Source: Phyllobates terribilis
Lineage: Eukaryota
Length of the DNA: 64,000 nucleotides
Assembly: GCF_046119375.1 (NCBI RefSeq)
Contig: NW_027362765.1
Span: forward strand, 232,438,001 to 232,502,000
Direction: 5' to 3'
Part shown: positions 8,326 through 45,362 of the stretch, piece after piece
Numbering within the stretch: position 1 is the first letter of the stretch
How the letters are laid out: each line of letters begins with the position of its first letter
Notes under the pieces: generated by a model
What the model was told of the DNA's origin: nothing
Database searches by the model: none
Seen by the model: only the letters and a program-made list of their open reading frames with translations
Program-made: the position numbers and the translations under genes

Positions 8326-10212
8326 TTAACCCGTTTCTAGCCAAGGGCGTACTAATACGTATCTGTGCCCTGGGCCTTATGGGCCTGATACATATTAGTA
8401 CGCCCTCTCTTTAATGGGACACCGCGACTTTGGTCGCGGTGATCGTATTAAATTTCCGGTGCCATCTTACCTTAGGGTAGATGGCGCAGGCATCTCGGGG
8501 GGTGTCGCCGCCCCCCCCCTCCCGCACCCACGCTCCTAAGAGCATCGATCCTAGGCTGTTGCTAGGAGACCCCAGCCCTGGCCCCAAACTGCTATGATCG
8601 GTGCGATCGCCGATCACACCGATCATAGCGGGACCGCGCGCTAACAGGGCGCTCACCGGCTTGTGACCTGCCTGTCACCGCCCTGTGATGTCAGAGAAGC
8701 CCCCAGCCAGCTCTGATTGGAGCGATCGATGATGATATCGATCGCTCCAATCAGAGTACCTGAACACAGGTGACAGGGCGGTCACAGGGCAGTGACCGGC
8801 TTGTGATCTGCCTGTCACTTCCCTGAGACCCCCTGTGGTGCGTGCCCAGGCCCCAGCCATCTCTGATTGGTGCGATCGATGTCGTCATCGATCGCACCAA
8901 TCAGAGTACCTGACCGAGAGGTGACCGAGTGGTGACCGGCCTGTGACCTACCTGTCACCACCCTATCACCCCCCTGTGACCGCCCTGCAGATCCTCACAC
9001 TTGGTGAGGATTTCTGCAGAGCAGTCACACTGATCTGCACTGTGCTGGGCCTTGTAGTGCCACAGAATCTTCTGTGACACTACAAGACCTTCCTCTCATC
9101 TGCTCCAGTCGCTGCTGCTGCTCTGGCATCCTGCTGCGGTCTCCAGGGTCCTGGGTCTCCTGCTCCAGCATCCTGCTGCGGTCTCCTGGGTCCTGAGTCT
9201 CCAGCTCCGTATCCTGCTGCTCCGGATCCTGCTCCAGAGCCTCTTCCAGAACCTGCTGCTGATCCTGCTGCTGAAAGAAGAACAGAGAAGACTTTGGTAA
9301 GTCTATTTCTATTCTCCCCTCATCCACCCCTATCCCCCCTCCCTCCTTTTACCCCCAAACCACCTCCCCCCAGTTAGTTTTTTTTTTGCGCGTCCTGCAG
9401 CAGCCGAGCGCTGACCAGTGACTACGTCACTGATCAACGTCCGTGCTCACTGGTTTTCAGGACTTTTTTTGACCCTGTCAATTCCCCCCCCCCCACTTTG
9501 CACCACCTCCGTGACGCAAATCACTGATCAGCACTCGCTACTGTACCCTTTTTTTTCAACTAACCTTTTTTCTTTTCTAGAGGGTGGTCGCGTGGTGCGC
9601 CGTGCTGGGCCTTGCGGTGCCACAGAAGCCTGTGACACCACAATTGCCGCTCCTGCTCCAGAAGACATCGTACAGAAGACATCGTACAGAAGACATCATA
9701 CAGAATACATCTTACAGAATACTTCTTACAGAAGACATCTTACAGAAGACATCTGAAAGATGAGAACTGTAAGTAGGATTTTTTGATCCATCCTCATCCA
9801 CCCCAATCCCCCTCTCTCCCCTCTCCTCCTTCCCCCCTTCCCATCCCCCTTTTTCCCACCAAGTGCTGATCATTGCTTGATCAGTACTTGATCGCTCGAC
9901 TTTTATCCGTTTTTTTTCCCGTGCTTTCTGCAGCGGCCGAGCGCTGATCAGTGACCACAGATCACTGATCCGCACTCATGCTCGCTGTTTTACACTCCCC
10001 CCCACCTTTGCAACACATCCGCGTGCACACCCAGCAGCTGCCGAGAGTTGATTGGTGACATAGTTCACCGATCCGCACTCGTGCTCGCTGTTTGCACCAC
10101 CTACAGTAGTTCCTTTTTTTCTCAGAAAAAAAAGTTCACACCAAGCACACTGACACACACACACTCTAAATAAAGTACTGACACACACGCACCACATGCA
10201 TAAGAAAAAAAG

Positions 10213-11915
10213 ATGTCCCGCTCATCCTAAACTCGCTATTCAGCTGAGGAGGCATACTCTTTTCTTGCCTCCGACACTGACAGCGAGGGCGAGGATCCCA
10301 CATTTCTTTATTTTTCTGACTCCTTGTCGTCCTCCTCCTCCTCTTCCTCCTCAGGTGCTGCTGGACTGCCCCGCAGTCGTCGCAGGAGAGAAGATGATCC
10401 AGCACCCCCCACTACTGACCCCATATGGACCTCGCCCCATGAAAATTATGAGCCACTGATTCCTGATTTCGTGGCGGAATCAGGAATCAAGTTTGACACC
10501 ACCGGCCTCACAAAAATAGACTTTTTCAAAGTCTTTTTCTCTGAGGACTTTATAAACCTCATGGTGGGCCAAACTAATTTATAAGCTCATAAATTTTTGG
10601 AACAAAACCCCTCTTCATCATTTTCTAACTGGTCTCCTGTAGACGCAGAAGAGATTATGAAGTTTTGGGGCCTTGTCCTTCATATGGGGATCCTGAAGAA
10701 GCCGGAGGTTCGGCAATACTTCAGTGTTGACGTTTTCTATAACACTCCTGTGTTTCGAATGGTCATGATCCGAAGATGCTTTGAGGCCATCCACAAGTTC
10801 TTGCATTACAACAATAATGCAAGGTGTCCTGCACGCGATGACCCGAACTTTGATCGTCTTTTCAAAGTTCGGCCAGTCATCGAGCACTTCGACAACAAGT
10901 TTGCTGAAGTGTATGTACCCCAAAGGGACATCTACGTGGATGAGTCCCTAGTTCATTTCAAGGGGCGGCTTGGATTCCAGCAGGACCTGCCCAGTAGGGC
11001 CAGGTATGGGATCAAGCTGTATAAACCTCAGGGTACACTCACAAGTTTACAGTTTATGAAGGGAAGGACTCCCGGATTCAACCCCCTGAATGCCCCCCTG
11101 TTCTGGGAGTGAGTGGGAAAATTGTGTGGGACTTGGTGCACCCACTGCTGGATAAAGGTTATCACTTGTACGTGGATAACTTTTATACCAGTGTCCCTCT
11201 CTTCAAGTCCCTCTCTGCGCGACGTACCACAGCCTGCGGTACTGTCCGCAAAAATCAGAGAGGCCTCCTAAAGACTCTAATTGGGCAGCTGCTCAGAAGG
11301 GGTGAGAGCAGAGCCCAATGTAGCGACCACCTGTTGGTGGTCAAGTACAAGTACAAGAGGGATGTCCTTCTCTTGACCAACATACATGGTGATGGCAGCA
11401 CCCTCAGCACTGTACGAGGTTCCACTACACAGGTCGCCAAACCAGACTGTGTAGTGGGGTATAACAAGTACATGGGGGGAGTTGATCTCTCTGATCAAGT
11501 CCTCCAGCCATACTGTGCTTTGAGAAAGGCCAAGGTATGGTATAAGAAGCTGGCCGTGCACATTGTACAGATGGCAATACACAACGCTTTCCTTCTGTCA
11601 CAATGTGCAGGCCAGATTTCTGCGTCGTATCTTCACATTAAGGAGACAGTTGTCAAGGCCCTGATATTTGGCAGTGGTGATGGAGCGGGCCCCAGTACTT
11701 CCGGAACTGAAGGACCTCAAATTGTACCAGGCCAGCATTTCCCGGGGCAGATCCCTCACAACGGAAAAAAAGGTAAGTCACAAAAGAAGTGCCGAGTGTG
11801 TTATAAAAGGGGAATACGCAAGGACACAGTTTATCAATGTGACACCTGCCCTGACAAACCTGGCCTGTGCATGAAAGACTGCTTCAAAAGGTACCATACT
11901 TCCATGGACTACTAA
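10213..11915 (+). pseudogene. piggyBac transposase (PGBD4-like) pseudogene
   Basis: Acidic/Ser-rich N-terminus, catalytic motifs YVDES, YVDNFYTS and GGVDLSDQ, and C-terminal Cys-rich domain CRVC...CDTC...CMKDCFKRYH. In-frame stops at 10228 and 10582, and a frameshift/deletion at ~11020-11110. Confidence 0.92.
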
Positions 11916-12074
11916 ATTAATTTCTGACGTATGACAACCTGATGAACACTACACAACTGACGTAGTGTTAGTCAGGTTGTCTTACGTCAGTTGTGTAATG
12001 TTCGTCAGGTTGTCCTACACAACTGACGTATAACACTACATTGTAAAATTCACAAATCGGGTATCAGTTCCAAA

Positions 12075-13100
12075 AAGGGGGCACTTGTTGGGCATTTCCA
12101 CTGTTTAGTCACATCAGGGGCTCTGAGAACGTGACATGACGCTCGCAGACCATTCCATCAAAGTCTGCATTCAAAAGCGTCACTGATTTCCTTCCGAGCC
12201 CTGACATGTGCCCAAACAGTAGTTTTCTCCAACACATGGGATATCAGCGTACTCAGGAGAAATTGCACAACAACTTTTGGGGTCCAATTTCTCAGAGTAC
12301 CTTCGTGAAAATAAAAATATTGCGGCTAAAGGATTGTTTTTGTGGAAAAAAAATATTTTTTTTTCTTCATGGCTCTACGTCATAAACCTTTGCAAAACAC
12401 TTGGGAGTTCAAAGTGCTCACCACACATCTAAATAAGTCCCCTGAGGGGTCTAGTTTCCAAAATGGGGTCACTTGTGGGGGGTTTCCACTTTTTAGGCAC
12501 ATCAGGGGCTCTCCAAACGCGACATGGGGTCCGCTGTGAATTCCAGCGAGTTTTGCATTGAAAACGTCAAATGGTGCTCCTTCACTTCCGAGCCCTGCCG
12601 TGCACCCAAACAATGGCTTTCCCCCACATATGAGGTATCAGCATACTCAGGAGAAATTGCACAACAACTTTTGGGGTCCAATTTCTCCTAGTACCCTCGT
12701 GAAAATAAAAATATTGCGGCTGAAAGATCGCTTTTGTGGAAAAAAATGATTTTGGCTCTACGTCATAAACTTTTGCAAAACACTTGGGGTTTCAAAGTGC
12801 TCACCACACATCTAAATAAGTTCTTTAAGGGGTCTAGTTTCCAAAATGGGGTCACTTGTGGGGGGTTTCCACTGTTTAGGCACATCAGGGGCTCTCCAAA
12901 TGCGACATGGAGTCCGCTGTGAATTCCAGCGAGTTTGGCATCGAAAACGTCAAATGGTGCTCCTTCCCTTCCGAGCCCTGCCGTGCGCCCAAACAATGGC
13001 TTTCCCCCACATATGAGGTATCGTACTCAGAAGAAATTGCACAACAACTTTTGGGATCCAATTTCCCCTGGTACCCTTGCGAAAATAAAAAATTGGGGTC
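12075..13100. repeat. ~385-bp subterminal tandem repeat (about 3 copies) of the piggyBac element
   Basis: AAATGGGGTCACTTGTGGGG at 12461 and 12844, with a diverged copy at ~12080. The same unit occurs inverted at 28740-30200. Confidence 0.85.
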
Positions 13101-14216
13101 TAAAATAAAATTTTTATGAAAAAAAGTTAAATGTTCATTTTTGCCTTTCACGTTCAATTAATTGGTGTGAAGCACATGAAGGGTTAATAAACTTCTTGAA
13201 TGTGGTTTTGAGCACCTTGAGGGGTGCAGTTTTTAGAATGGTGTCACTTTTGGGTATTTTCTGTCATAAAGGCCCCTCAAAGTCACTTCAAATGTGATGT
13301 GGTCCCTAAAAAAAATGGTTTTGTAAATTTTGTTGTAAAAATGAGAAATCGCTGGTCAACTTTTAACCCTTATAGCTCCCTAACAAAAAAAAATTTTGGT
13401 TCCAAAATTGTACTGATGTAAAGTAGACATGTGGGAAATGCTATTTATTAACTATTTTGTGTGACATATCTCTCTGATTTAAGGGCATGAAAATTAAAAT
13501 GTTGAAAATTGCAAAATTTTCAAAACTTTCGCCAAATTTCCATTTTTTTGACAAATAAACGCAAGTGATATCGAAGAAATTTTACTACAATCATGAAGTA
13601 CAATATGTCACGAAAAAACAATCTCAGAATCAGGGGGATCCGTTGAAGCGTTCCAGAGTAATTACCTCATAAAGTGACAGTGGTCAGAATTGTAAAAATT
13701 GGCCCGGTCATTAACGTGCAAACCACCCTCGGGGGTAAGGGGGTTAAAATACTGTACATCCTAAATATTATATGCCAAAACAATCTATTCAAGGTCAATC
13801 AATAAATACACATTAATATATGAGATTTCTTATTTTAGGGAGAAAGAGCATTTGATGACAGTCATTCATTATTCATTACTTCTCTTCTTCGTATCTGGAT
13901 AGATATGTTTTTCTGTAAGGGAAAGTAAACAAAGCAACCAGACAGTTTTCACCGCATAGCAATGTGAAAAGTTTCACGCCCGATGGCGTTTTTTCATTGC
14001 TGTAGAAGTTACAGTATGATTGATTAGATTGTCATGGTGAGGGTTGGAAAGGTTTTTCCTCTTCTGTTTTATATTGTTGTTATATAACTTGTTAAAACTT
14101 GTGCCTGTGCTACCTTAGTTTTTAACTATGTCTAGTTGTGTGGTTAGAGGAGTATATTTTAACCCATTAATGATCACCAATATGACTTAAAACTGACCTG
14201 CGATATAAGAGACTAG

Positions 14217-15436
14217 TGTGTCACCCAGGGGGATATAGGGGACTCGGTACCCGGACCTTTTACCTTGCTTAGGATGTCACGGCAGTCTGCTCCCGGGCCC
14301 GTACTCTGGGGTCTCTCTTGAAAAAGGGGTTTTTAGTGTATAGTTTGTTTCGTGACGCTACCTGGGGTGTCCGGTAATGGTTACCGGTGCTGCTGCAGAC
14401 CTCCGGGGGTGATGAAATGGCAGCTGGGATGTTTCTGCTCCCCACAGGTAGAGCGGGCCCCAGGGCAGTGTAGTATAGATGATGGTGATGCTGGGGCTTG
14501 TGGTGCAGGAGAGATGGCACAGCTGAAATAACTGACGGAGGCAGTGGAGTGCAGTCATCCGAGTTTACTCACAGTTCTGTTCAAGCTCCTCAGGTACACT
14601 GTACAGGTGTCAGCCTCCCGCGTTGGACTGCGTCTACCAGATAAGGGGTCCAGCACTTTCTCAAGTATATCAGGAGCGCTTGACGGAACCCCACTTTCTT
14701 TATGTTCCTTACTAGACCGACTTCTCGCGCCGGGTCTTCTCCCTCCTGCCCTGCGCTTTCCCACACTCAGTCCCGATCGGGTGCTCTGAAGTCCCTCCTG
14801 GACCTACTTGATGCCCTTCACGGTGACTAGGGTGAGACTGTGGCAACTGCACCATGGAAATGCAGAAGCCTCCGGTTTTCCAGCCGAGACCTGGAGTAAC
14901 ACGGCTGGTCCAGGGACCGGTTCCCTTCTGGCGACCTGATCCCTCTGACACTTGGCAGACTCGGGCGTACGGGTGCCGTCCTGCACTCACCGTACCCCCT
15001 GGGATCCCTTCTGTTAACGGAGCCTTTCTCCTCTGCTCCCCTCCTGGGCCTCTATTACTGGGCCCCTTTCTGGAGCAGAGCTCCTGAAGAGACTCTGCTC
15101 TCCTCCTCTCCTTGCTACTCACTTTCAGAACTACACTACTCCTCTTAAGATGGCTTCCCTTTATATACACCTATAAAAGTGCTCCCCTAAACTGCTTCCC
15201 CCACCCTCACCCACTACTGGTCCCCCCTCTCTTTGGTTCCCCCCACTCCAGCCAGGGACAGGGCTCAGCAGGAACACAGTGCATCTTGCCCTTCCAGCCG
15301 GCCTGAAGTAGTGTAGTGTTGAATGCAGGTGTTGGGGTTCCGGGCAGCACTCCCTCCTTACCTGAGAGAAGGAGATACCACACCTCTGGGTGAGGTGCAG
15401 TACCTCTGTGGCGACTGAACCCTCAGGGGCGCCACA
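14217..15436 (-). mobile_element. Solo LTR (1220 bp), related to the LTRs of element 18110-27770
   Basis: TG...CA ends and 4-bp TSD CTAG (14213-14216 and 15437-15440). The terminal ~70 bp align with 19320-19380. Minus-strand TATATAAA at ~15160 and AGTAAA at ~14563. Confidence 0.88.
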
Positions 15437-17462: not shown

Positions 17463-18109
17463 TGGTAACCAGTCAGGTACTGAAGCCTCCTAGCTTCCCA
17501 ATAATGTCTTTAGTACCTGAGACAATAGCTGGAAAAATTTAATTTTAATGCTATCCTCAGCATTTGCAAATGTACTTGATTAGTCCAGGGAGGTCTGTTC
17601 ACTGAGAGCAGTCCGATTGTACGTGCCTTAGTAGGTAATCATATATGGCACTCCAGAACTGTAGGAGAGGTGCCTTTGTAGGGTTCCAATCCGTTGTGTA
17701 TGTTGTGAGTAAAACTCGGCACGCAACGTATGTATGTGATAACAGACGTGGTTTTAATTACAGTCCAAAACAGTCCAATGAATAGCTATGACGTTTCAGT
17801 CCAACATGGACACTCATCAGAAAAGCGGACTGTGTCTGTACGAAGGATTAGGAATGTGCAGCGCTGAAGTATAGTGCTATGGGCGCCCATTCCCGACAGT
17901 GGCTTAGTCACTATACTTCAGCATGTACAAAGCATTGGACTGTTTTGTACATGCTTTAATCACGCGTCCCCTTGGCATCACCGACATCCTCCTGACTCGC
18001 TGCGTCTTCTCTTCTGCACTCATAGTCTAGCGCATGCACATGATATCTTTTCTTCCTAGCATCGAAGAGAAGACACATGATGTCAATCAGGTTCAGGGGG
18101 GCATGATTA

Positions 18110-19380
18110 TGACGCGCCCCCTGGGCCAGTGCTGTAGTGCGGCGCGCGTGCGCGCGGGGAATACCCGGAGCCGGATCCGATGGGGGTAGTAGTCTTCGTG
18201 TGGCGGTGACCCGGTCCGTGCCCAGGGTGGTCAAACTAAACGTGTGGCAGTCTTTGTAGATGTTATAAATGTCGACTACGCCACCCGTTGATTTGCGGTC
18301 GCAAGGCCGCCACTGCAAAACAGTCCGCTGAGGCCGATGGTATATATGTGCAGCTATGGTGGTATAACCCCCAACGGGAGAGGTATAGCCTCAGGGCAGC
18401 TGGTGCGGGTGAAGGGAGTGATAGTAAGAGCGTCCCGGTACCTATGGTGCTGGTGGTGCGATGGAACACAGAGACTGATTGCAGTTTTCATTGCTTTACT
18501 CACAGTTGTTATTAACGTCAGTCCTGCAGGTGATGACGACCCGAGCCATGCTGCGTCCACCAGGTACGGGGCTCGACCAACCCCCAGGCAGTTCCAGAGT
18601 GTGACCTTGAACTCCTTTCCCCGTTCCTTTCTCTGGCCGTCCCCACTAGGGACCCACCCATGTCCAGCTTCCTCGGGCCTTCTGGTGGCGAAACCTTTCT
18701 CCGGTCTCCCTGACCCTATGTGGCATGCCTTCGTGGTGAGTGTAGTGAGTGGTCGCGCCAAGACGTGGCCACGTCCTCCGGTTCCTGGCTGAGGATAAGT
18801 GGCCTCCACCAGTTTGGGATCCGGTACCCTGATCTGCCAACCCTTCACCCGCTGACTACTAGCGTGTTCGGGTTCCTTCTTGCTTCATGTCTCTGGGCCT
18901 TTTCTTATGTTTCATTCTTTCCTTGCTTCTTGTTCCTTTCTTCTTCACTCTTGCTCCCTCCAGGGGCAGCACCCAGACAGGGCTGCTGCTCCCTGTCACT
19001 CCTCTTCTCACTCTTCTTCTGTCTGACTGAACTGAACTCACTCCTAAAATGGTGCCCACCTTTTATACTCCCTCTGACACCCGAGCCCAGGTGATTAGCA
19101 ACCAATGGGCTCCTTCCTATGCCCAGAAACCCGCCCCTATCTGCTCCTACACCACTGGGTTTTCCTCCCCCTCCCCACTCCAGCCAGGAACAGAAGCTGT
19201 CGTACCTGCACATCTTTCTAGTGGGAGTACCGTCGGTCTGTTCCTCGGAAATGGGGTGTGTGTGGTGCATGCAGCTAACTGAGTTCTAGTCCACACTCCA
19301 TCCTTACCCGGGAGTGGAATACCACACCTCTGGTTCGAGGTGCAATACCCCTGTAGCAGCCGAGCCCTCGGGGTGCTACA
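18110..19380 (-). repeat. 3' LTR of the outer element
   Basis: Matches 26500-27770 at offset 8390. Minus-strand TATAAAA at 19061-19067, with CCAAT (~19102) and GC boxes upstream. Confidence 0.95.
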
Positions 19381-19390
19381 TTCCCCCCTG
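19381..19390 (-). promoter_or_regulatory. Polypurine tract of the outer element
   Basis: Minus strand CAGGGGGGAA lies immediately before the TGTAGCACC start of the 3' LTR. Confidence 0.85.
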
Positions 19391-19997
19391 GTAAATCACA
19401 GCACGTCCTTGGGCTGAAACAGAGCAAAACAATTACAAACTTACAAAAATTTTAAAGTGTACACTCATAAATAAGACATTAACTTTCAAATCATCCCTTT
19501 ATGGGAGGTACTCTTTTCACTTTAACGTTACTGATATCAACACTTTTGCTAATGCCACGGGAACTCTTTTGTAGAAAACACGATATATAAAAAACTTCAG
19601 CATCGTTACTTTTAGCAGCATTATGAAACTTTCACATTTAGACATTTTTCATATAAAACATTTTCAACATTCTTGACTTCTTGGGATCTGGCCGCTGTGC
19701 AACTCACGACCTGATAAATTGCAACAGTCACTGTATCTTGAGGTTGGGAAGGGTTCTTACAAAACCAATAGGGGGCGCTTTAGGAAGCGCAACTAAGTAC
19801 AGGGTCGGCCGCTCTCAGTCCTCAGCCAGGTAGAGGGAAAGGATGACCGCTCTCAGTCCTCGGTCAGGTTAGGGATTAGGGCAAAGCAGGCAACAGTTCT
19901 CTTTCTGTCCCAACGGGGACCACACTCTTTGTGGAAACAGTCTCACAACAGTCCTTATACTCGATCGGGTAACTATTTACATCTCCTCTTTTACCGT

Positions 19998-21094
19998 TTA
20001 CGATTGACGGTGTCCTCCACACGCTCCTTCCTCTTCCTCAGGTTCAGACCCGTCCGGGCCCCCTTTCTTCTCCTCCTGGTACGATAACTCCTCCTCCTCC
20101 TTGACCCGGTGGACATGAAGGGCGTACCACCCCTTCACTCCCTTATGCCTGGTATAGGTGACGGTATCTCCAGGCACCAGGTCCCGTCCACTGAGCCCCT
20201 CCGGTAGGTGGGACTCTACGTCGCTCCTGTTTACAAACACCTGGCTCATGGTCTTCGGGTCTTAGATGATGCCCCAGCCACATGCCATGTGAAACTTAAC
20301 AACAGTCCCGGTGACTCGGGGACCGTGAGCTGTACGGGGGGTCCTGGCGGGCCCTTGTCTTCTGCTCCACGTTTTTAATGTGGAGCCACTCCTTCACTTT
20401 CCTCTCTCTCCGCTCCCGCTCAACCGTTGACCGTTGTTGGCGGCAGGTCCCATAGCGCCGGGCGGCGCCCGCCCGGGTCTCCTGAGTGAACCCCATCAGG
20501 TCTTCTCCAGTGGGGTCCCCCTCATATTGAGCGTCTTCCAGCGGGGGTGAAGAGAGGTCCACGGGCTCCGGAGCTGGGATTAGCGGTTCATCTGGGGCCC
20601 TTGCTCCCTCGGGGTGACTCTTCCTGGAGCGGGGTTTGGTGTATTCAGGCGGCCAGATGAATGGTGTCCCATCCGGGCAGGTGTGCTGCTCATACAGGTC
20701 TTTCCCCAATGGTGGCACAACTGGGGGCCCCGGCTGGGGTGCAGCGCCCGCGGGCACTCGGCCTTTCAACCAGGCCGGTGACTTTCTGATCGTGCCCGAT
20801 GTTGGGGAGCACGGTCCTGGGCGAGGCTCCGCTGCAGAGCTTGCTGCTGGAGGGCTAACTGCTGGTGATGGAGGCACGGCGGGCGGTGCGGCACCCAGAG
20901 CTTCGGGTTCCGCGGCGGGAGGTAGGGGCAGGTCCGCGGCCACAGGGCCCGGAGTAACGGCGTTCCCCTTACTTGTCGTTGCGGCCTCCCCCGCGGCGTT
21001 GTCCTCGGCCTCCGATCCGCTTCTGCTGCCTCTCGGGATGGACGCGGTGCTGGATGGTGGCTGCGGTGGTGAAGCTCTCCTCCGTATCCGACAT
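19998..21094 (-). pseudogene. Disrupted ORF: Pro/Ala-rich low-complexity region, then a cold-shock-domain-like (OB-fold) module, then an acidic tail
   Basis: Minus frame 20318-20103 reads RVTGTVVKFHMACGWGII*DPKTMSQVFVNRSDVESHLPEGLSGRDLVPGDTVTYTRHKGVKGWYALHVHRV, with RNP1-like GWGII and RNP2-like VFVN. TAA at 20262-20264. It joins ORF 20296-20943 if one G is removed from the run at 20336-20341. The true start is uncertain. Confidence 0.72.
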
Positions 21095-21302
21095 CCTCCT
21101 CCCCCCTAGTGGACCGCGGCCTACCTCGCGATGATCCTCTTCCATAGGCCGCGGCTCCGCAGTGGATCGTCAGGGTTGAGGACCTTCCGTCGCGCTCCTG
21201 TGACGTCGGCGTCTGCTGGGCTCCTTCCAGGACCTTACGCAACGTCCGGACGTGAGGCGGGGCTTCAGTTCTCGCGGGCTTTCGGAGTCCACGCCCCTCT
21301 TC

Positions 21303-21424
21303 TTCCCGCGCGGCGCCCTCAAGATGGCGTCCAATGGCGGGAAAACTCCACGGATGGCGGGAAGAAGGCAGAAGATGGCGGGAATCGGCTCCAGATGGCG
21401 GGAAACGACTCCGGACGGCGGGAA
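21303..21424. promoter_or_regulatory. Phased cluster of E2F-type (GGCGGGAA) and YY1-type (AAGATGGCG) motifs in a CpG-rich leader
   Basis: GGCGGGAA at 21336, 21356, 21377, 21397 and 21417. TTCCCGCG at 21303. AAGATGGCG at 21321 and 21372. Function is inferred from motif match only. Confidence 0.55.
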
Positions 21425-21493
21425 ACTTCACCACAGGTAAGTATAAAAGTCTCTTTTTTCAGGCACGCAGTACCCGGTGGTTGCGGGCACGTA

Positions 21494-21504
21494 ATCCTGC
21501 CGAC
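21494..21504 (-). promoter_or_regulatory. Distal part of the tRNA-Ser PBS of the outer element (proximal part at 26484-26495)
   Basis: Removing the nested element and one TSD copy restores minus-strand TGGCGTAGTCGGCAGGATT, complementary to the vertebrate tRNA-Ser 3' end (...AATCCTGCCGACTACGCCA, recalled from memory). Confidence 0.85.
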
Positions 21505-21925
21505 TGTTATGTTCTGCTACCAAAGCTAAGGAAAGAGAGGAGATCTGTCCCTACTATAAGACTCAGCTGAATCCCTACGATGTAACAGGGAACCTGATCC
21601 TGCGATCAGACCTGCTAAAGTCCTAATCTAGTCTGTACGAAGACCTATAGATGTGGGGAGGGAATCCCTACAAGTACTAAGGACTGGGAGGAATATGGGA
21701 CACCTCCTAACAGAAATAGTAGCAGACAGACGAACAAACAAAATAGATAGAACATAGAGGTCCGTAGACCAAGCAAACTAACAGAGTTAGATACAGAGCA
21801 CAGGCTAGCTAGAAAGTAGATATACAATGAAGTCCAGCAAAGCCAGAAGGGCGGAGCAGGATTAAATAGGCCAACAAGGTCATGTGACCAGCAAAGGAAA
21901 AAAACCTAACAGCAAGGTTCTAACA
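21505..21925 (-). repeat. 3' LTR of chromovirus B
   Basis: Identical by eye to 26063-26483. Confidence 0.95.
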
Positions 21926-21937
21926 GTACCCCCCCTT

Positions 21938-24900
21938 CTAAGAGGATCCTCCGGATCCCCTAGGACCAGGCTTATCAGGAAATCTCCTGTGAAACGCTCT
22001 GATAAGTCTGGACGCGGAAACATCATCTGACCTCACCCAAGAGTTATCCTCGGGTCCGAAACCTTTCCAGGCCACAAGATACTGCAAACTACCTCTATAC
22101 CGTCTAGAGTCAAGGATGCGAGAAATTTCATATTCCCCGTCCTCCACCACCGGAGGAACAGAGGCAGAGGCGTCACCATCCGACACAACAGCTTTTTTTA
22201 ACAGAGAGACATGAAAGACCGGATTAATTCTCCAGGAGGTAGGAACCTCCAACCTAACAGCAGATTGGTTGACAACCTGAAGCACCTTAAAGGGCCCTAC
22301 AAACTTGGGACCCAATTTCTTAGAAGGAATCCTCAACCGCAGATTCCTAGAGGACAACCAAACCATGTCACCAACAGCGAACAAAACCTCCTGTCGTTTC
22401 CTATCAAAGTAGTCTTTAGATTTTCTGTTGGCCTCCTGAAGATTACCACGCACATCCGTCCAAACTCTTTCCAAATCACCGGAAAAATTCTCCTCCTCAG
22501 GCACGGCAGATCCCAACTTGGAGAACGACCCAAACGACGGATGTCTCCCAGAACAACAAAAAAAAGGCGAACAACCAGCAGAAGAAGATGTATGATTGTT
22601 CAGAGCAAATTCGGCAAGTGGCAGAAACTCAGACCACCCCTCTTGATTGTCTGCCACAAAACAACGCAAGAACTGCTCAACATCCTGGTTTTTCCTTTCT
22701 GTCTGGCCATTAGATTCAGGATGATATCCGGACGAAAACGACAAATGAATTCCCAACCTGTCACAAAAGGCACGCCAAAAACGAGCCACGAACTGAGGAC
22801 CCCTATCAGAAACAATGTCAGTAGGAACGCCATGAAGTCTGACAATTTCCTTGACAAAGGCCTTAGCGAGAGTTTTAGCGCAGGGCAGTTTGACGAAGGG
22901 AACCAAGTGACACATCTTGCTAAAACGGTCCACGATCACCCAGATGACAGTAAAACCCTCAGAGGGGGGAAGGTCAGTTATAAAGTCCATAGCCAAATGT
23001 GTCCAAGGAGCACTGGGGACCTCCAAAGGACAAAGCAACCCCGCAGCAGGAGTATGTGAGGACTTAGATCTAGCACATATAGTACATTGGCGCACCCACT
23101 TAATGACTTCCTTCTGCCATCCAGGCCACCAAAAACTGCGACCCACCAGTCTCTTGGTCTCAGAGATTCCGGGATGACCTGCCAACCGAGATTCGTGACA
23201 CTCAACAAACAAATCTCTCCTAAAGGTCTCAGGCACAAACAACCTCCCATGAGGAGTGTTAGATGGGGCATTCTCCTGAGCTTTAAGAATCTCATCTTCC
23301 AAAACGGAGTCTAAAGCAGCTATCACAACACCTTCTTGTAAAATGTTTTCCTCTTTCTCAGCACCGACTATGGGAGAAAAACTGCGAGACAAGGCATCCG
23401 CCTTAACATTCTTAGTACCAGGGATGTAAGTAACGGAGAAATTAAACCGCGAGAAAAACAGTGCCCACCTAGCCTGACGGGCATTCAGGCGCTTGGCAGC
23501 ATCAAGATATATCAGATTTTTATGATCCGTAAGAACCTGAACGGGAAATTCCGCACCTTCCAAGAAGTGGCGCCAGTGTTCAAATGCGAGTTTAATAGCC
23601 AATAATTCCCGATTACCAATATCGTAATTCAGTTCAGTCTCCGAAAATTTTTTTGAAAAAAAGGCACAGGGATGTAATCCATCCCCGTTATCCTGAGACA
23701 ATACTGCGCCAACCCCCACAGAGGAAGCATCAACCTCAACCAAAAACGGCCTAGTAACATCAGGCTGCATAAGGATGGGAGCAGAGGTGAACCTCTCCTT
23801 GAGATACACAAAAGCTTCAATGGCCTCAGAAGACCACTGAACCGCATCAGCACCTTTCCTGGTGAGATCAGTCAGAGGTTTGACAATACTAGAAAAATTT
23901 TTTATGAATTTTCTGTAGTAATTGGCGAAACCCAAAAACCTCTGTATCGATTTCAAACCAATAGGCCTAGGCCATTCCTGCACAGCCTGAACCTTAACCG
24001 GATCCATCTCAAAACCTTTGCTGGAGATAATGTAGCCCAAAAAACTAATTCTCTGTACAGCGAACTCACATTTCTCCAGCTTAGCAAAAAGCGAATTGTC
24101 CATTAATAACTGTAATACCTCACGCACGCTCCGCCAATGAGACTCCAGATCTGGCGAATAAATCAAAATGTCATCCAAATACACAACCACATTTTTACCG
24201 ATCAAAGGTCTAAGGATGTCATTAATCAGATTCTGAAAAAATGCAGGAGCATTAGTAAGACCAAAAGGCATAACCAAATTCTCAAAATGACCCACAGGAG
24301 TGTTAAAAGCAGTCTTCCATTCATCACCCTCCTTCATGCGCAACAGATTGTATGCCCCCTTAAGGTCAATTTTAGAGAACCACTTGGCCCCCAATAACTG
24401 GTTAAACAGATCAGGAATCAATGGCAGTGGGTAAGGATTGCGTACCGTAATTTTGTTAATCTCACGAAAATCCAGACAAGGACGTAAACCGCCGTCCTTT
24501 TTTTTTACAAAAAAAAATCCAACCGCCACAGGAGACTTAGAGGGCCTAATGTGACCGGCGGCCAAACTTGTCTGTATGTATTCCTCCAAAGCCTTCCTCT
24601 CAGGAATAGTAAGGTTAAATAAACGACTTTTAGGAAGAGTCGCTCCAGGGACAAATTCAATAGAACAATCATAGTCTCTATGGGGAGGCAAAACCTGCGA
24701 TTCCTTCTCAGAAAAAACTCTCCAAAAATCCTGAATAGGAACAGGCAATTCTCCCCTATCCAAAGCTGCAATACGCCCGTTACAACACTTGTCATAACAT
24801 TTATGGCTCCAGGATTTAATTTCACTGGTAGACCAATCCAGTACAGGGTTGTGAAATTTTAACCAGGGCAAACCCAATATTACTGGAGAAGGCAAGTTAT

Positions 24901-26006
24901 TCAACACTACCAAATCCAATTTCTCATGGTGAACACCATTAATAGTGAGAGGAAATTCACTGACCTTGAGAGTAATATTCTTCAAAGGGGAGCCATCCAC
25001 AGAAACCACAGCAATGGGGGATGATAAAGGTTCAGGTTTTAAATTGAGTTTTTCCACGAATCCCCCATCAATTACATTCAGTGTAGACCCGCAATCAACA
25101 AACACCCGAAATTCCATTAATTTTTCCTGAGCAATCGTGGAAGCAGCTAAAAATATACCCTTGGAATTTAAACAGGCAATACGGGCGTGACTGACCATTT
25201 TTTTTTCTTTCTTCATACGAAGCTCACAGCCTTTAATCAAATGACCAGATTTTCCGCAATAGAAACACAAGCCTTCCGAAAAACGACGGTCTTTTTCTTG
25301 AGAGCGAGGTGCCACCGATCCAATCTCCATCGGTTCACCACTGTTAGTACACACATTATCATAACCAGAAACTGACATAGCAGAGGATTTGCTCTCATTA
25401 ACCCTAGCACGCAGTCTTCTATCCACCCGTATAGCTAATTGCATAGCCTGTTGCAAATCCTCAGGTGTAGGATAAGCAATTAGCAGGTCTTTAACCCTTT
25501 CACTGAGCCCAGCAAGAAATAGACTTTTCAGAGCAGAATCGTTCCACCCTGTTTGAGTAGACCAACGACGGAAATGAGTACAATATTTTTCCACATTACC
25601 CGATCCTTGTTTTAAACGTCTCAACTCAGTCTCAGCTGATGCCACATGGTCAGGATCATCATATAATAGTCCTAAAGCAGAAAAAAAACTATCCACTGAT
25701 CTGAAGCATGTATCACTAGGTTGCAAAGAAAAGGCCCACTCCTGAGGCTCTTTGCGCAACAGTGACATTATGAACCCTACGCACTGGGATTCATCCCCAG
25801 AGGACTTGGGTCTCAAACGAAAATACAATAAGCAAGCATTTTTAAATGAAAAAAAATTCTCGATGTTCACCAAAAAATAAATCCGGCAAACATACCTTAG
25901 GCTCCAAGAAATATGCTCCAGGACAGTTACTCACGTGCTGACGGAGCTCGGCCACTTCCAGAGAGAGTCCCTGCAGGTGTTTAGCCAAATCCTGAACCGA
26001 CACCAT
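21938..26006 (-). CDS. Gag-Pol polyprotein (gag, CCHC knuckle, protease, RT, RNase H, integrase, chromodomain); one apparent +1 frameshift near the N-terminus
   Basis: The 1311-aa open frame 21938-25873 contains CFYCGKSGHLIKGC, FVDCG, YLDD, RNase H (EVDAS...TDHKNL), the HHCC finger, D-D-E (MDF, SDRG, TER), GPF and YEISRILDSRR...YLVAWKGFGPEDNSW. The ATG at 26006 (MVSVQDLAKHLQG..., homologous to copy A) is out of frame by one T in the T8 run at 25849-25856. The corrected length would be 1355 aa. Confidence 0.93.
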
Positions 26007-26051
26007 GATGGAAAAAAAAAAAAAAAAAATCTTTCCTTAGAGAATTTGCAG

Positions 26052-26062
26052 GCTGGACTTAC
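26052..26062 (-). promoter_or_regulatory. Primer-binding site of chromovirus B, putative self-priming type
   Basis: Minus strand GTAAGTCCAGC is complementary to GCTGGACTT at 26396-26388, which begins 30 nt after TATTTAA (26426-26420). Confidence 0.72.
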
Positions 26063-26483
26063 TGTTATGTTCTGCTACCAAAGCTAAGGAAAGAGAGGAG
26101 ATCTGTCCCTACTATAAGACTCAGCTGAATCCCTACGATGTAACAGGGAACCTGATCCTGCGATCAGACCTGCTAAAGTCCTAATCTAGTCTGTACGAAG
26201 ACCTATAGATGTGGGGAGGGAATCCCTACAAGTACTAAGGACTGGGAGGAATATGGGACACCTCCTAACAGAAATAGTAGCAGACAGACGAACAAACAAA
26301 ATAGATAGAACATAGAGGTCCGTAGACCAAGCAAACTAACAGAGTTAGATACAGAGCACAGGCTAGCTAGAAAGTAGATATACAATGAAGTCCAGCAAAG
26401 CCAGAAGGGCGGAGCAGGATTAAATAGGCCAACAAGGTCATGTGACCAGCAAAGGAAAAAAACCTAACAGCAAGGTTCTAACA
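26063..26483 (-). repeat. 5' LTR of chromovirus B
   Basis: TG..CA ends, identical to the 3' LTR, followed by the TSD. Confidence 0.95.
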
Positions 26484-26499
26484 CCGACTACGCCAAAGT

Positions 26500-27770
26500 T
26501 GACGCGCCCCCTGGGCCAGTGCTGTAGTGCGGCGCGCGTGCGCGCGGGGAATACCCGGAGCCGGATCCGATGGGGGTAGTAGTCTTCGTGTGGCGGTGAC
26601 CCGGTCCGTGCCCAGGGTGGTCAAGCTAAACGTGTGGCAGTCTTTGTAGATGTTATAAATGTCGACTACGCCACCCGTTGATTTGCGGTCGCAAGGCCGC
26701 CACTGCAAAACAGTCCGCTGAGGCCGATGGTATATATGTGCAGCTATGGTGGTATAACCCCCAACGGGAGAGGTATAGCCTCAGGGCAGCTGGTGCGGGT
26801 GAAGGGAGTGATAGTAAGAGCGTCCCGGTACCTATGGTGCTGGTGGTGCGATGGAACACAGAGACTGATTGCAGTTTTCATTGCTTTACTCACAGTTGTT
26901 ATTAACGTCAGTCCTGCAGGTGATGACGACCCGAGCCATGCTGCGTCCACCAGGTACGGGGCTCGACCAACCCCCAGGCAGTTCCAGAGTGTGACCTTGA
27001 ACTCCTTTCCCCGTTCCTTTCTCTGGCCGTCCCCACTAGGGACCCACCCATGTCCAGCTTCCTCGGGCCTTCTGGTGGCGAAACCTTTCTCCGGTCTCCC
27101 TGACCCTATGTGGCATGCCTTCGTGGTGAGTGTAGTGAGTGGTCGCGCCAAGACGTGGCCACGTCCTCCGGTTCCTGGCTGAGGATAAGTGGCCTCCACC
27201 AGTTTGGGATCCGGTACCCTGATCTGCCAACCCTTCACCCGCTGACTCCTAGCGTGTTCGGGTTCCTTCTTGCTTCATGTCTCTGGGCCTTTTCTTATGT
27301 TTCATTCTTTCCTTGCTTCTTGTTCCTTTCTTCTTCACTCTTGCTCCCTGCAGGGGCAGCACCCAGACAGGGCTGCTGCTCCCTGTCACTCCTCTTCTCA
27401 CTCTTCTTCTGTCTGACTGAACTGAACTCACTCCTAAGATGGTGCCCACCTTTTATACTCCCTCTGACACCCGAGCCCAGGTGATTAGCAACCAATGGGC
27501 TCCTTCCTATGCCCAGAAACCCGCCCCTATCTGCTCCTACACCACTGGGTTTTCCTCCCCCTCCCCACTCCAGCCAGGAACAGAAGCTGTCGTACCTGCA
27601 CATCTTTCTAGTGGGAGTACCGTCGGTCTGTTCCTCGGAAATGGGGTGTGTGTGGTGCATGCAGCTAACTGAGTTCTAGTCCACACTCCATCCTTACCCG
27701 GGAGTGGAATACCACACCTCTGGTTCGAGGTGCAATACCCCTGTAGCAGCCGAGCCCTCGGGGTGCTACA
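26500..27770 (-). repeat. 5' LTR of the outer element
   Basis: Matches 18110-19380 and is followed on the minus strand by ACTT and then the tRNA-Ser PBS. Confidence 0.95.
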
Positions 27771-28739
27771 ATTACATCATGTAAAGCCGGACTGCTCTCA
27801 GTGAAGAAACGCCCCCTGAGTAATCAAATACATTTGCCTATGCTGAGGATGGCTTTAAAAGTTTATTTTTCCAGTAATAACAGCTGTTGTCTCAGACATT
27901 AGAGATATTATTGGAAAGCAGGATTCACATTCTAAATTGTACTGTCGTTCAGCGTTAGAGACCCAACCGATTCCCTTTGTTAGAAGGACACTCATTGGTT
28001 ACCTCAAAAAATGCTATCAATTCCAAGGAAGAACTTTAAAGAGGTTTTCCCACGAACAAAAGTTGATTGTAATCAATAGATCTTGGAATAATAATAATTT
28101 CCACAAGTGGATGTGTTTTAACCACTTTACAACCCAAGGTGGTTTGCACGTTAATGACCAGGCCAATTTTTACAATTCTGACCACTGTCACTTTATGAGG
28201 TAATTACTCTGGAACGCTTCAACGGATCCCCCTGATTCTGAGATTGTTTTTTCGTGACATATTGTACTTCATGATTGTGGTAAAATTTCCTTGATATCAC
28301 TTGCGTTTATTTGTGAAAAAAAACAGAAATTTGGCGAAAATGTTGAAAATTTTGCAATTTTCAAAATTTTAATTTTTATGCCCTTAAATCAGAGAGATAT
28401 GTCACACAAAATAGTTAATAAATAACATTTCCCACATGTCTACTTTACATCAGCACAATTTTGGAACCAATTTTATTTTTTATTAGGGAGCTATAAGGGT
28501 TAAAAGTTGACCAGCGATTTCTCATTTTTCCAACAAAATTTACAAAACCATTTTTTTAGGGACCACATCACATTTGAAGTGACTTTGAGGGGTCTTTATG
28601 ACAGAAAATACCCAAAAGTGACACCATTCTAAAAACTGCACCCCTCAAGGTGCTCAAAACCACATTCAAGAACTTTATTAACCCTTCAGGTGCTTCACAT
28701 TAATTTTTGGAATGTGGAAGAAAAAAATTAACATTTAAC

Positions 28740-30200
28740 TTTTTTAACAAAAATGTTACTTTAGACCCATTTTTTTTTTTATTTTCGCAGGGGTAACAGG
28801 AAAAAATGGATCCCAAAATTTGTTGTGCAAATTCCCTGAGCACGCAGATACCCCATATGTGGGGAAAAAACACTGTTTGGCCGCACGGCAGGGAATGAGC
28901 GCCATTTGACTTTGAATGTAAAATTTGCATGAATAATTAGCGGACGCCATGTTGCGTTTGGGGAGCCCCTCATGTGCCTAAACAGTGGAAACCCTCCCAC
29001 AAGTGACACTATGTTGGAAACTAGACCCCTCAGGGAACTTATCTAGATGTGTGGTGAGCACCTTGAACCCCCAGGTGCTTCACAGAAGTTTATAACATTG
29101 AGCCGTAACAATAAAATTTTCACATTTTTCCCACAAAAATATTTTTCAACCCCCAATTTTGCATTTTCATAAGGGTAACAGGAGAAATTGCACCATGCAG
29201 TTTGTTGTGCAATTTCTACTGAGTAAGGAGATATCCCATATGTGGGGGAAAACCACTGTTTGGGCGCACGACGGGGTTCGGAAGGGAAGGAGCTCCATTT
29301 GACTTTTTGAATGGAAAATTTGCTTGAATAATTAGCGGACACCATGTTGCGTTTGGGGAGCCCCTGATGTGCCTAAACAGTGGAAACCCCCCACAAGTGA
29401 CACCATCTTGGAAACTATACCCCTCAGGTAACTTATCTAAATGTATGGTGAGCACCTTGAACCCCCAGGTGCTTCACAGAAGTTTATAACATTGACCGTA
29501 AAAATAAAATGTTCACATTTTTCCCACAAAAATGTTTTTCAGCCCCCAATTTTGCATTTTCATAAGGGTAACAGGAGAAATTGCACCATGCAGTTTGTTG
29601 TGCAATTTCTCCTGAGTAAGCAGATACCCCATATATGGGGGAAAACCACTGCTTGGGCATACAGCAGGGTTCAGAAGGGAAGGAGCACCATTTGACTTTT
29701 TGAATGTAAAATTTGCTTGAATAATTAGCGGATGTGCCCCTGATTTGCCTAAACAGTGGAAAGCCTCCACAAGTGACACCATTTTGGAAACTAGACCCCT
29801 CAGGGAACTTATCTAGATGTGTGGTGAGCACCCTGAACCCTCAAGTGTTTTTTTATAAAAGAATCAAACTTTTTCCACAAAAATTATGTTTTAGCCCCAA
29901 TTTTTTTTTATTTTCACAAGGGTAAGAGGAGAAAAACTTTTGTGCAATTTCTCCTGAGTACACCGATACACCATATGTGGGGAAAATACAGTGTTTAGGC
30001 GCACAGCAGAGTTCAGAAGGGAAGGAGCACTGTGTGACTTTTTGAACCGAAAATTGGCTGGAATCGAGAGCGGACACCATGTCGCGTTTGGAGAGCCCAT
30101 GATGTGCTTAAATAGTGGAAACCCCCCACAAGTGACCCCATTTTGGAAACTACACCCCTCAAGGATTTTATCAAGGGGTATAGTGAACATTTTGAACCCA
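28740..30200. repeat. ~385-420-bp tandem repeat array (about 4 copies), same unit as 12075-13100, inverted
   Basis: CCCCACAAGTGAC(A/C)CCAT(T/C)TTGGAAACTA recurs at ~28995, ~29390, ~29768 and ~30125. Confidence 0.82.
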
Positions 30201-33853: not shown

Positions 33854-34089
33854 AGAAATATACATATAGCACAATGCCAAAGATTTCACTTACTTCTTCC
33901 ATTACATAAGTGATATCTATTGTAAATTCAACAATACCATACAGCAGAGGGGATTTAGGTGATCTAGGGCCACAGGTTTCAGGGTTTCACTACCTGTAGT
34001 GTTCGAGGTAAAATGGATATTGATAAATGTACCCTACCAGTAGAAACTGTCCTCAGCAGTGTGCACTTTACAAAAGCCATTTTCCTCCT

Positions 34090-34600
34090 ATATAGTCCTC
34101 CATACAGTATTATGGGCACCACATAGTCATCCATACAGTATTATGGGCACCACATAGTCCTCCATACAGTATTATGGGCACCAGATAGTCCTCTATACAG
34201 TATTATGGGCTGCAGATAGTCCTCCATACAGTATTATAGGCACCACATAGTGCTCCATACAGTATTATGAGCACCACATAGTCCCCCATGCAGTATTATG
34301 GGCACCACATAGTCCTCCATACAGTATTTTGGGCACCACATAGTCCTCCATACAGTATTATGGGCACCACATAGTCTTCCATACAGTATTATGGGCACCA
34401 CATAGTCCTGCATATAGTATTATGGACCCCGTATAGTGCTCCATACAGTATAATGGGCCCCATATATTGCTCCATTCAGTATAATTGTCCGAATATAGTG
34501 TTCTATACAGTATAATGAGCCCCACATAAGTGCTCCACACAGTATACTGGCTCCCATATATTGCTCCATTCAGTAAAACAGGCTCCATATAGTGCTTCAT
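34090..34600. repeat. 31-bp minisatellite (CATAGTCCTCCATACAGTATTATGGGCACCA), ~11 good copies and then diverged
   Basis: Tandem copies directly visible. Confidence 0.92.
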
Positions 34601-34865
34601 ACATAAAAAATAAATAATCAAATAATCACCTCTTCCTGTTTCCCCACTGCTCCAGTCTCTTCAGTGTCTTCTGAGGCTCTGCACTGTTCAGCACAGAGGG
34701 CGCACTGTAGTGACGTCATCGTGCCCTCTGCGCTGAGACGTCACAAGAACTCAGATGCAGAGGGGGAATGATGGGAGAATGAGCATCAGCTGACGCCCCT
34801 CTCTTAAACAATTGAACTGAAACAGTTGAAAGTACAGTGCAGCGGGAGGGGGGGGGGGGGGCGGA

Positions 34866-36235
34866 CAGGGCCAGCTCAAGGTTTATGTGGGCCCTGGGCG
34901 AAAGAGTCTCAGTGGGCCCCTTTAACATATACCACGATTTATGATGCACAGATACCGCAGAGAAATATATATATAGTACAATGCCGAAGATTTCACTTCT
35001 TACATTACATGAGCGATATCTATTGTAACTTCTACAATAACTCAGAAACCGGCGAATTCTCTCAACACACAGTGCAGACCGGACAGTATAGCTCCATGCA
35101 GAATATTGATCCCCATATAATGCTCCATACAGGATACTGGTCCCCATATAACGCTCCATACAGGAAACTGGTCCCCATATAATGCTTCATACAGGATACT
35201 GGCCCCCATATAACGCTCCATAGAGGATACTGGCTCCCTTATAACGCTCCATACAGAATACCAGAATACTGGCTCCCACATAATGTCCCATGCATGATGT
35301 CACTCCCCCTTATAATGCCCCATGCAGGATGTCATCTCTCCCCCTATATAATGCCCCATGCAGGATGTCACCTCTCCCCCCCTTATAATGCCCCATGCAG
35401 GATGTCACCTCTCCCCTCCCATATAATGCCCCATGCAGGATGTCACCTCTCCCCTCCCATATAATGCCCCATGCAGGATGTCACCTCTCCCCCCCATATA
35501 ATGCCCCATGCAGCATGTCACCTCTCCCCCCCATATAATGCCCCATACAGGATGTCACTTTCCCTCATATAATGCCCCATACAGGATGTCACTTTCCCTC
35601 ATATAATGCCCCATGCAGGATGTCACCCCCCATATAATGCCCCATACAGGATGTCACCTCTCCCCCCATTATAATGCGCCATGCAGGATGTCACTTGTCC
35701 CCCCCTATATAATGCCCCATGCAGGATGTCACTTGTTCCCCCCCACCATATAATGCCCCATACCTCCATACATATATATAAAAAAAAATCAAATACTCAC
35801 CTCACTTCTCACCTGCTACAGCTGCTCTGGACTCCTCACCTACGCCGGCTCTACGCTGTGACGGCTCAGGAGAGAGCGCGGTGTAAAGACGTCAACGCGC
35901 CCTCTGACCTGAGACGTCACAGTGCAGCAGCCTCGGAAGAAACCGGAGCTGCTGCGAAGGCACGGGGAGAGGTAAGTATTGAGCCGGGGTCCTGAGCAAG
36001 CGGGGAGGAGCGGGTTCTGACACCGGCACCGCACCGCCCACGAGTCCCATAGCGCGCCAAGGTGCCCGATGGTGAGTGGGCCCCCCCGCCTGCTCAGGGC
36101 CCGGAACTTGCCCGGGTGCGCCGGGTGCTGACGCCGGCCCTGGGGGGGGGGGGGGGTATGCCACTGAGTGGGCCCCCCCGTTTGTCCAGGGCTCTGGCAG
36201 GTGCCCGGATACCCCGGGTGGTGACTTCGGCCCTG
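34866..36235. mobile_element. hAT-like non-autonomous element containing minisatellites
   Basis: CAGGGCC...GGCCCTG termini; a second left-end copy at ~33222. No matching TSD found. Confidence 0.5.
35100..35760. repeat. Two adjacent ~31-33-bp minisatellites (CCCCATATAATGCTCCATACAGGATACTGG and CCCCATATAATGCCCCATGCAGGATGTCACCTCTC)
   Basis: About 6 and about 15 tandem copies visible. Confidence 0.9.
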
Positions 36236-36533: not shown

Positions 36534-37606
36534 GGCCACATGCACATCTTCAGTATTTGATCAGTATTTTACCTCAGTATTTGTAAGCCAAAACCAGGAG
36601 TGGGTGATAAATACAGAATTTGTGTAGCATCGGCGTCTCTGCCTCCTGCCGGGCAGAGACGCGGTTCCCCTCACTGCCACGGCCCTGGTCCGGTGTCTTC
36701 CGGCTCCCGTCCTGCAGCTACTGTAGCGCGCACTGCACGCAGCTTCCCGGGCCCTGTACTTAGGGCGCGCGTGCTCCCTCCTTCTTAAAGGGGCCGCGCG
36801 TGCCGTCCTAAAAAGTCCCCGGCCAATGGCCGGAGGACTTCCCCTATTTAAAGCACCTCCTCCAATATGGAGGTGCCTGTGCAATGGTTGTTGCTCTGTG
36901 TTGCTTCAGCCCTCAGGTCCCTCTGTAAGTCAGTCCTGTCCGCCAGTCTGTTCTTCAGTCCAGCCCACCAGTCTGACTACTATCCAGCCCGACAGTCTGT
37001 CTACAGTCCAGTCCGTCAGTCTGTCTATGGGCTCTGCCCGCCTGCTTACCTCGAAGCACCTGCCAGTTACCTGCCATGTCCACCAGCCTGCTTACCTGGA
37101 AGCACCTACCAGTTACCTGCCGTGCCCGCCAGCCTGCTTAACTGGAAGCACCTGTTACCTGCCGTGTCCCCCAGCCTGCTTACCTGGAAGCACCTGCCAG
37201 TTACCCGTTGTGCCCGCCAGCCTGTCTACCCGGAGCACCCGTCTGGTTATCTGCCGAATCAGCCTGCTTACCCACTTTACCGGTCTGTTCCTGCCATCTG
37301 ACCCATGGGAGTCACCTGCTCTCATACAAGGTCGGTCTCAGAGTGGCACCTGGTCCCCCTGCTCAGTCCCTCCCTGGTTCACGGAGTCGACTGAGCCACC
37401 GTGCGACCTTGGTCAGGCCGAGTAGGTACTTAGTCACACCCCTCTGGCCCCTCCTTGCACCGAAGCACAGAGGTTCCACCACCCGAACCCGTAACAAGTG
37501 GTGATGTGTTTCTATTATACTTTTCCTCTGACTTTTCCACTCCTGATTTTTGCTTACGAATACTGAGGTAAAATACTCAAAAAAATCTCAACGTGTGCAC
37601 GTGGCT
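36534..37606. mobile_element. Harbinger MITE family A, split by a solo LTR
   Basis: 36534-36619 plus 37497-37606 reconstitute a family A MITE. Confidence 0.75.
36623..37496 (+). mobile_element. Probable Gypsy solo LTR (~874 bp) with internal ~33-bp repeats
   Basis: TGTAG...GTAACA ends, TATTTAAA at ~36844, tandem CCAGTTACCTGCC...CCAGCCTGCTTACCTGGAAGCA units at 37040-37270. TSD is degenerate. Confidence 0.62.
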
Positions 37607-45300: not shown

Positions 45301-45362
45301 CAGGAGCATGCAGACAGGAGACAAGGAAAGAAAAGGAGCTGGTTCTGGTTGTCACCTCGAGA

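Follow-up and report, generated by a model that had tools for sequence, protein, structure and literature searches.

A non-autonomous LTR retroelement of the poison frog Phyllobates terribilis with a broken gene for a diverged, predicted cold-shock domain protein

The locus and its surroundings

Why should an LTR retroelement in which neither gag nor pol is detected carry a gene that appears to specify a cold-shock domain (CSD) protein? The question is raised by a stretch of 64,000 nucleotides from P. terribilis (contig NW_027362765.1, positions 232,438,001 to 232,502,000 of the forward strand), hereafter the window, whose numbering is used throughout. We propose, at a probability of about one half, that the element is a frog LTR retroelement of the non-autonomous kind and that its one gene encodes a Y-box-derived RNA-binding protein domesticated by the element.

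The window is vertebrate and rich in repeats. Exons of an MMP9-type gelatinase (~45100-52630; Peptidase_M10 and fn2 matches), with a cysteine switch, three fn2 exons and a zinc-binding motif, lie about 17 kb from the outer of the two LTR elements described below. A decayed DDE transposase was located at 10.6-11.9 kb, and the region ~8330-13750, which matches DDE_Tnp_1_7 and zf-Tnp_2, was recognized as the remains of a piggyBac-like element, whose internal repeats recur, inverted, at 28113-30200. Tandem arrays with units of 31, 37-38 and 46 nt occupy 33999-35761 and 37017-37280.

Anatomy of the outer element

Self-comparison of the window revealed two nested LTR pairs. The outer element, all of whose parts are given here on the minus strand, has a 5' LTR at 26500-27770 and a 3' LTR at 18110-19380, each of 1271 nt and with TG...CA termini; the 5' LTR contains a TATA-like box at LTR position 314 and an AGTAAA signal at 881. 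The pair is flanked by a 4-bp target-site duplication (TSD; 27771-27774 and 18106-18109, to which strand does not apply). Four of the 1271 positions differ between the LTRs (0.31%, Poisson range 0.09-0.81%), in agreement with the recent transposition at 0.3% divergence that had been proposed from the sequence. The first 12 nt of the primer binding site (PBS; 26484-26495) lie 4 nt from the LTR and are complementary to the 3' end of tRNA-Ser, an assignment made by comparison with the tRNA-Ser template oligonucleotides in the accessible part of PMC3299991; a further seven matching nucleotides are found at 21493-21499, across the inner element. The polypurine tract (PPT; 19381-19389) adjoins the 3' LTR. 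Both of the boundaries originally placed around the gene are present, but the PBS is split by the 4979 nt of the inner element.

Between these sites lie a CpG-rich leader (21146-21499, CpG o/e 1.1), the cargo gene and a 3' non-coding stretch of 607 nt (19391-19997, 41.5% GC). The leader holds five copies of a 7-nt motif, out of eight in the whole window. This motif is TTCCCGC, followed in four copies by CAT, and CGCCAT occurs five times overall in the leader; we take these copies to resemble E2F and YY1 sites. A strong splice-donor-like motif is present on the plus strand near 21437, and a motif of ~30 nt occurs in two imperfect copies at 19806-19877 in the 3' non-coding stretch.

With the inner element removed, the internal region amounts to 2135 nt, in which the longest stop-free frames have 269 and 230 codons. 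Neither of these two frames has any Pfam match, and no match to gag or pol was found in the plus-strand frames. The outer element is a non-autonomous LTR retroelement, without a detected reverse transcriptase or integrase of its own, and the anatomy first described for it (LTRs, PBS and PPT, with gag and pol undetected) is upheld. The cargo open reading frame (ORF) had been read as sense-oriented and as the only coding remnant. Its orientation is borne out, since element and ORF are both on the minus strand. As to the second point, gag and pol are indeed undetected, but the overlapping frame of 230 codons (20766-21458) is stop-free as well; it has no Pfam match, and against the relatives described below gave only one low-complexity match of 31 residues (E 0.97).

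At 14217-15436, on the minus strand, lies a solo LTR of 1220 nt that belongs to a related subfamily and has its own 4-bp TSD. It shares the TATA and GTGAGTAAA layout of the outer LTRs, its terminal 90 nt are 80% identical to the outer LTR, and the global alignment score of the two is -220 as against -721 +/- 38 for 20 shuffles. The outer LTR family thus comprises at least two subfamilies. Each outer LTR also contains, ~170 nt before its end, a 12-nt stretch that matches the beginning of its own PBS at 11/12 positions (26662-26673 and 18272-18283; 0.10 matches expected by chance), which the solo LTR does not have. No matches were returned by Rfam for 17500-28500 and no tRNAs by ARAGORN. The literature on the PBS and TSD of Gmr1 yielded nothing usable, including the accessible part of PMC4592553 on primer sites.

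The inner chromovirus

The inner element (21505-26483, minus strand, 4979 nt) is a chromodomain Gypsy element inserted within the outer PBS. It possesses 421-nt LTRs with no differences, a 5-bp TSD and a frame of 1330 codons covering part of gag, protease, reverse transcriptase, RNase H, integrase and chromodomain. It is younger than the outer element. Since it is younger and makes duplications of a different length, we infer that it is not the helper of the outer element, a role against which the 5-bp versus 4-bp TSDs speak together with the unrelated LTRs.

Its TSD sites (21500-21504 and 26484-26488) fall inside the outer PBS. No targeting is evident from this, since the 5-bp target of a solo LTR related to the inner element (59786-60217) is unrelated. 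The window's two chromovirus copies, 77% identical, are out of frame at the same early-gag T-run (25849-25856 and ~1600-1640), which may reflect a slippage hot spot, an assembly error or recoding.

The cargo gene and its lesions

The cargo gene is present in two pieces, both on the minus strand. The upstream piece (20296-21105) specifies a Pro/Ala-rich region, a conserved block and a charged helix, and the downstream piece (19998-20345) the CSD (20312-20106) and an acidic tail, ending at the terminal stop 19998-20000. Translation reproduced the peptide originally reported, with its in-frame stop within the CSD (20262-20264, minus strand). The two pieces are in different frames. Both are matched by P0007, a protein of 431 aa from P. 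terribilis: the upstream piece with 40% identity over 293 columns (E 2e-37), and the CSD piece with 57% identity over 114, both within the single frame of P0007. When this one-frame protein was used in tblastn, the alignment switched frame in the minus-strand zone 20323-20345, which contains a run of six G residues (20336-20341). Because P0007 matches both pieces in a single frame they were once one gene, as had been surmised for the Pro/Ala-rich ORF and the CSD ORF. The Pro/Ala-rich part does belong to the gene, but homology to P0007 begins at 21066 and not at 20943, the limit first given. The homologous frame is open from 21105, with upstream stops at 21106-21108 and 21121-21123. The ATG at 21145 was rejected as the original start, since the sequence from there aligns to the N-terminus of P0007 no better than expected by chance (435 of 1000 shuffles).

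If half the divergence of the LTRs is taken as the measure, 1083 coding sites should have acquired ~1.7 substitutions and 0.07 nonsense changes (upper bound 0.17) since the insertion. With so few nonsense changes expected, the lesions are probably older than the insertion. The gene of the window copy was therefore probably broken before this copy jumped, and the protein was, for that reason, probably not needed in cis for the jump. The frame break taken alone is possibly an assembly error, since it coincides with the G run and both chromovirus copies are out of frame at their T-run, although the 1330-codon frame of the inner element passes unbroken through nine runs of length 7 or greater; such an error is an unlikely cause of the in-frame stop. 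With that stop, the frame break, the two stops upstream of 21105 and the split PBS, the window copy is dead. The earlier statement that the element carries a binding protein has to be limited: the gene is whole in a natural relative, but the window copy cannot make the protein.

Identity of the cold-shock domain

With X placed at the stop, the window peptide matched PF00313 over residues 5-73 (20312-20106) with 27.7 bits (E 2.6e-6), against a curated cut-off of 27 bits. A hidden Markov model (HMM) built from seven relatives, with the window row excluded, scored 105.6 bits at the same place and 0.6 bits at the next-best place in the six window frames. The AlphaFold model is a five-stranded OB barrel with pLDDT over 90 in the barrel, and Foldseek returned 49 matches at E<=0.001, those listed being Csp, YBX, Unr, LIN28 and CARHSP1 structures, with Csp, YBX and CARHSP1 filling the top ranks. 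In NCBIfam and PHROGs only weak Csp-type matches far below the cut-offs were seen, including a retron Se72 effector. Judged by profile and predicted fold, the CSD of the window element is real, and the original identification survives on all three counts: PF00313, model and Foldseek.

Against PDB sequences, the best eight of 11 matches of the window peptide were YBX1 or YBX2, each of them weak (E 0.005-0.011). The domain is 30-33% identical to YBX1 in the Foldseek rows, and its loop is within one residue of that of YBX1 and five residues longer than that of Csp. The CSDs of YBX1-3 are over 90% identical among vertebrates, and an identity of 30-33% would place the family CSD outside them.

The nucleic-acid-binding face of Y-box CSDs includes a Trp (of 'KWF'), a His and the RNP Phe residues. 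Among the eight family CSDs (window copy and seven relatives), the RNP2 Phe and an aromatic residue in RNP1 are kept in 8/8 and the RNP1 Phe in 5/8, the window copy lacking it; the Trp and the RNP2 His occur in none. The RNP1- and RNP2-like motifs of the original prediction are only partly canonical. With Trp and His gone from all eight and the RNP1 Phe retained in only five, binding of ssRNA or ssDNA by the family CSDs may be weak or different.

Relatives and origin of the family

Word-index searches with the window peptide were blank although P0007 is in the database and within the length range, so that such blanks are uninformative. An exhaustive search gave 31 matches, namely seven single-domain relatives, 19 tandem-CSD proteins and five repeat artefacts (P0006, the best-ranked match with 36 repeats, and P0013, P0014, P0018 and P0025), which are repeat-driven and contain no CSD. 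The relatives with a species name are P0007, encoded on a 259-Mb contig, and P0012 of Ranitomeya imitator; both are single-member automatic gene models, that is, predicted proteins. PF00313 scored three of the seven relatives above its cut-off and three below, with no match to the seventh. The window copy is the sole family member seen inside an LTR element.

P0007 consists of a disordered region, a 44-residue charged helix, the CSD and an acidic tail. Its predicted structure has a short helix (2-21), disorder to ~265, a helix (274-317), the barrel (327-397), a further helix (400-411) and the acidic tail, with pLDDT under 50 in 250 of the 431 residues, the alignment being shallow (7 rows). A homodimer prediction for residues 262-414, in which the alignment was not used, scored 0.00 and is uninformative. 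An atlas search with residues 200-410 returned only CSD clusters under 0.9, which serve as leads only.

CSD identity within the family is 27-67% (28 pairs of the eight CSDs), whereas the upstream parts align at E<=0.001 in only three of 21 pairs. This is what purifying selection on the domain would be expected to produce, as judged from protein sequences. Neutral decay, which would have told against the original prediction, is not apparent in the family so far as conservation of the protein shows. In a tree with 14 of the 19 tandem-CSD proteins (P0015, P0024, P0030, P0035 and P0036 left out), and without YBX, LIN28, CSDE1 or bacterial Csp rows, the eight family CSDs formed one side of a 100/99 branch, opposite the 14 tandem-CSD domains.

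The family profile gave 33 PDB matches, led by eight YBX1/YBX2 chains (39-41.5 bits) and followed by bacterial Csp (best 36 bits) and CSDE1 (20.6 bits); LIN28 was not among the 33. VIA analysis of the P0007 model placed CARHSP1, Unr and LIN28 on top, tied at Z 10.5-11.5 (best Z 11.5, rmsd 2.2, 81 aligned), so that a Y-box origin of the family CSD is favoured, though not proved.

How the gene came to be there

The proposed reading has to be weighed against other origins of the gene. In the strongest competitor, which we regard as somewhat unlikely, the CSD gene would belong as an accessory ORF to a larger, autonomous Gypsy or ERV element. The window copy would have arisen from it by internal deletion of gag-pol, and the protein might do the same work, though in a family that is autonomous. 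Selection on the gene is more easily explained in such a lineage, bird ERVs have CSDs beside pol (PMC12287698), and deletion derivatives in which LTRs, PBS, leader and PPT survive are frequent among frog ERV families (PMC8278194, in the part accessible). Against this, no remnant of gag or pol was found in the 2135-nt internal region, no fusion with a retroelement domain occurs in any of the seven relatives, and pol-less LTR families with a single ORF do exist in frogs and fish, as the accessible parts of PMC4585706 (1A11, Xretpos and lambda-olt 2-1 of Xenopus) and PMC12067270 (BHIKHARI of zebrafish) describe.

Improbable, too, is a passive cargo, in which an amphibian host CSD gene would have been captured once as mRNA and be decaying, the relatives being host genes or pseudogenes. 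The window copy does have at least two lesions, and capture of host mRNA by retroelements occurs (PMC12287698). However, no poly(A) remnant was found in the 3' non-coding stretch, the gene stands alone and in sense between leader and PPT, its domain is ~30% identical to YBX1 whereas the bird captures reported in PMC12287698 are near-canonical, and the N-termini of at least eight clusters are unrelated, which is odd for a host gene. A very diverged Gag, with the CSD in place of a zinc-knuckle nucleocapsid as in a gag-only element of the BHIKHARI or 1A11 kind, is very unlikely: the cargo ORF is the sole ORF and in the gag position, and gag-only LTR families were initially thought to be without known homology (PMC12067270, accessible part), but the P0007 model (7 rows) has two short helices, one long helix and a barrel and no helical bundle, the upstream sequence is about half Pro, Ala, Ser, Thr, Gly and Glu, a CCHC knuckle occurs in none of nine sequences, and the VIA search, by which the upstream part was barely tested, listed no capsid or other fold for it.

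What the protein may do

If the gene is an element-domesticated, Y-box-derived one, the outer element would be mobilised in trans by an autonomous element with 4-bp duplications, and intact family members would make the CSD protein. By analogy with Y-box proteins, which coat mRNA and retroviral RNA, the protein might coat the element's single-stranded RNA; coating could then stabilise this RNA and help it to compete for the helper's particles. The accessible part of PMC5047747 reports that YBX1 stabilises murine retroviral and HIV RNA. The CSD protein might also have a chaperone, priming or packaging role, as had been suggested from the sequence. The window copy would be a dead end, its gene probably defective already at the time of copying and its PBS split afterwards. 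More tentatively, and with some doubt, we suggest that frogs may harbour old, still-moving LTR parasites without gag or pol, their only gene a Y-box mimic whose re-tooled binding face selects element RNA for the helper's particles or for germline mRNP stores; broken copies would in turn live off these parasites and be supplied in trans.

Usually, non-autonomous LTR elements retain either gag or nothing at all. An element that has retained, under selection, nothing but an RNA-binding protein of host origin would, if this reading is true, represent a third strategy, that of competition at the RNA-protein level, and the whole gene in poison frogs is a hint that elements of this kind maintain an RNA-coating helper of their own. 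The family would provide a natural, divergent CSD clade in which the Y-box Trp and His are missing and with which the determinants of CSD specificity could be tested, and 'uncharacterized CSD proteins' in poison-frog annotations would be genes of elements and not of the host. Taken with the bird ERV cases (PMC12287698), it would speak for CSD capture as an adaptation that recurs among LTR elements.

Comparison with known systems

The original prediction took CSD cargo to be undescribed in vertebrate LTR elements. This is contradicted by PMC12287698, the accessible part of which reports 46 bird ERVs with CSDs, captured several times; its authors suggest that proliferation may be aided by such repeated captures. 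The capture of CSDs by vertebrate LTR elements has, then, already been published and the idea is not new. We found no publication on an amphibian CSD-bearing LTR family, in a search that covered subscription journals thinly (a Repbase or Dfam entry may exist), nor on an element devoid of gag and pol that has a diverged CSD clade of its own. The bird ERVs resemble the outer element in being vertebrate LTR elements with PF00313. They differ in being RT-bearing members of ERV-A/B and ERV-G with CSDs at varied positions, whereas the outer element is without detected gag or pol, and in having near-canonical CSDs (E 3e-14 to 9e-26 in 30 of 41 pfam00313 rows), as opposed to a diverged clade in a dedicated protein of the 400-aa class.

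The families 1A11, Xretpos, lambda-olt 2-1 and BHIKHARI share with the outer element LTRs around one ORF, the lack of pol and an amphibian or fish host. The ORFs of 1A11 and Bik are Gag-like, that of Bik with a capsid fold, whereas no capsid fold is predicted for the outer-element protein; no CSD in single-ORF families is reported in the accessible parts of PMC4585706 and PMC12067270. XtERV-S likewise comes from a frog, has deleted derivatives and is primed at a tRNA-Ser PBS of 19 nt, but its TSD is of 5 bp and it possesses full gag-pol-env (PMC8278194, accessible part), which makes it an unlikely helper.

YBX1 and YBX2 are the best PDB matches of the family profile and have a similar long loop and a five-stranded barrel, but identity is ~30%, the binding-face Trp and His are lost in 8/8, and the family CSD is C-terminal, behind a long helix. 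Y-box proteins possess a tail of alternating basic and acidic stretches, which is absent from the family proteins. LINE-1 ORF1p, which chaperones its own RNA, is composed of a disordered region, a long helix and an RNA-binding domain. This layout is like that of the cargo protein, by analogy only and with no homology claimed; ORF1p differs in belonging to a non-LTR element, in its RRM fold and in being a trimer.
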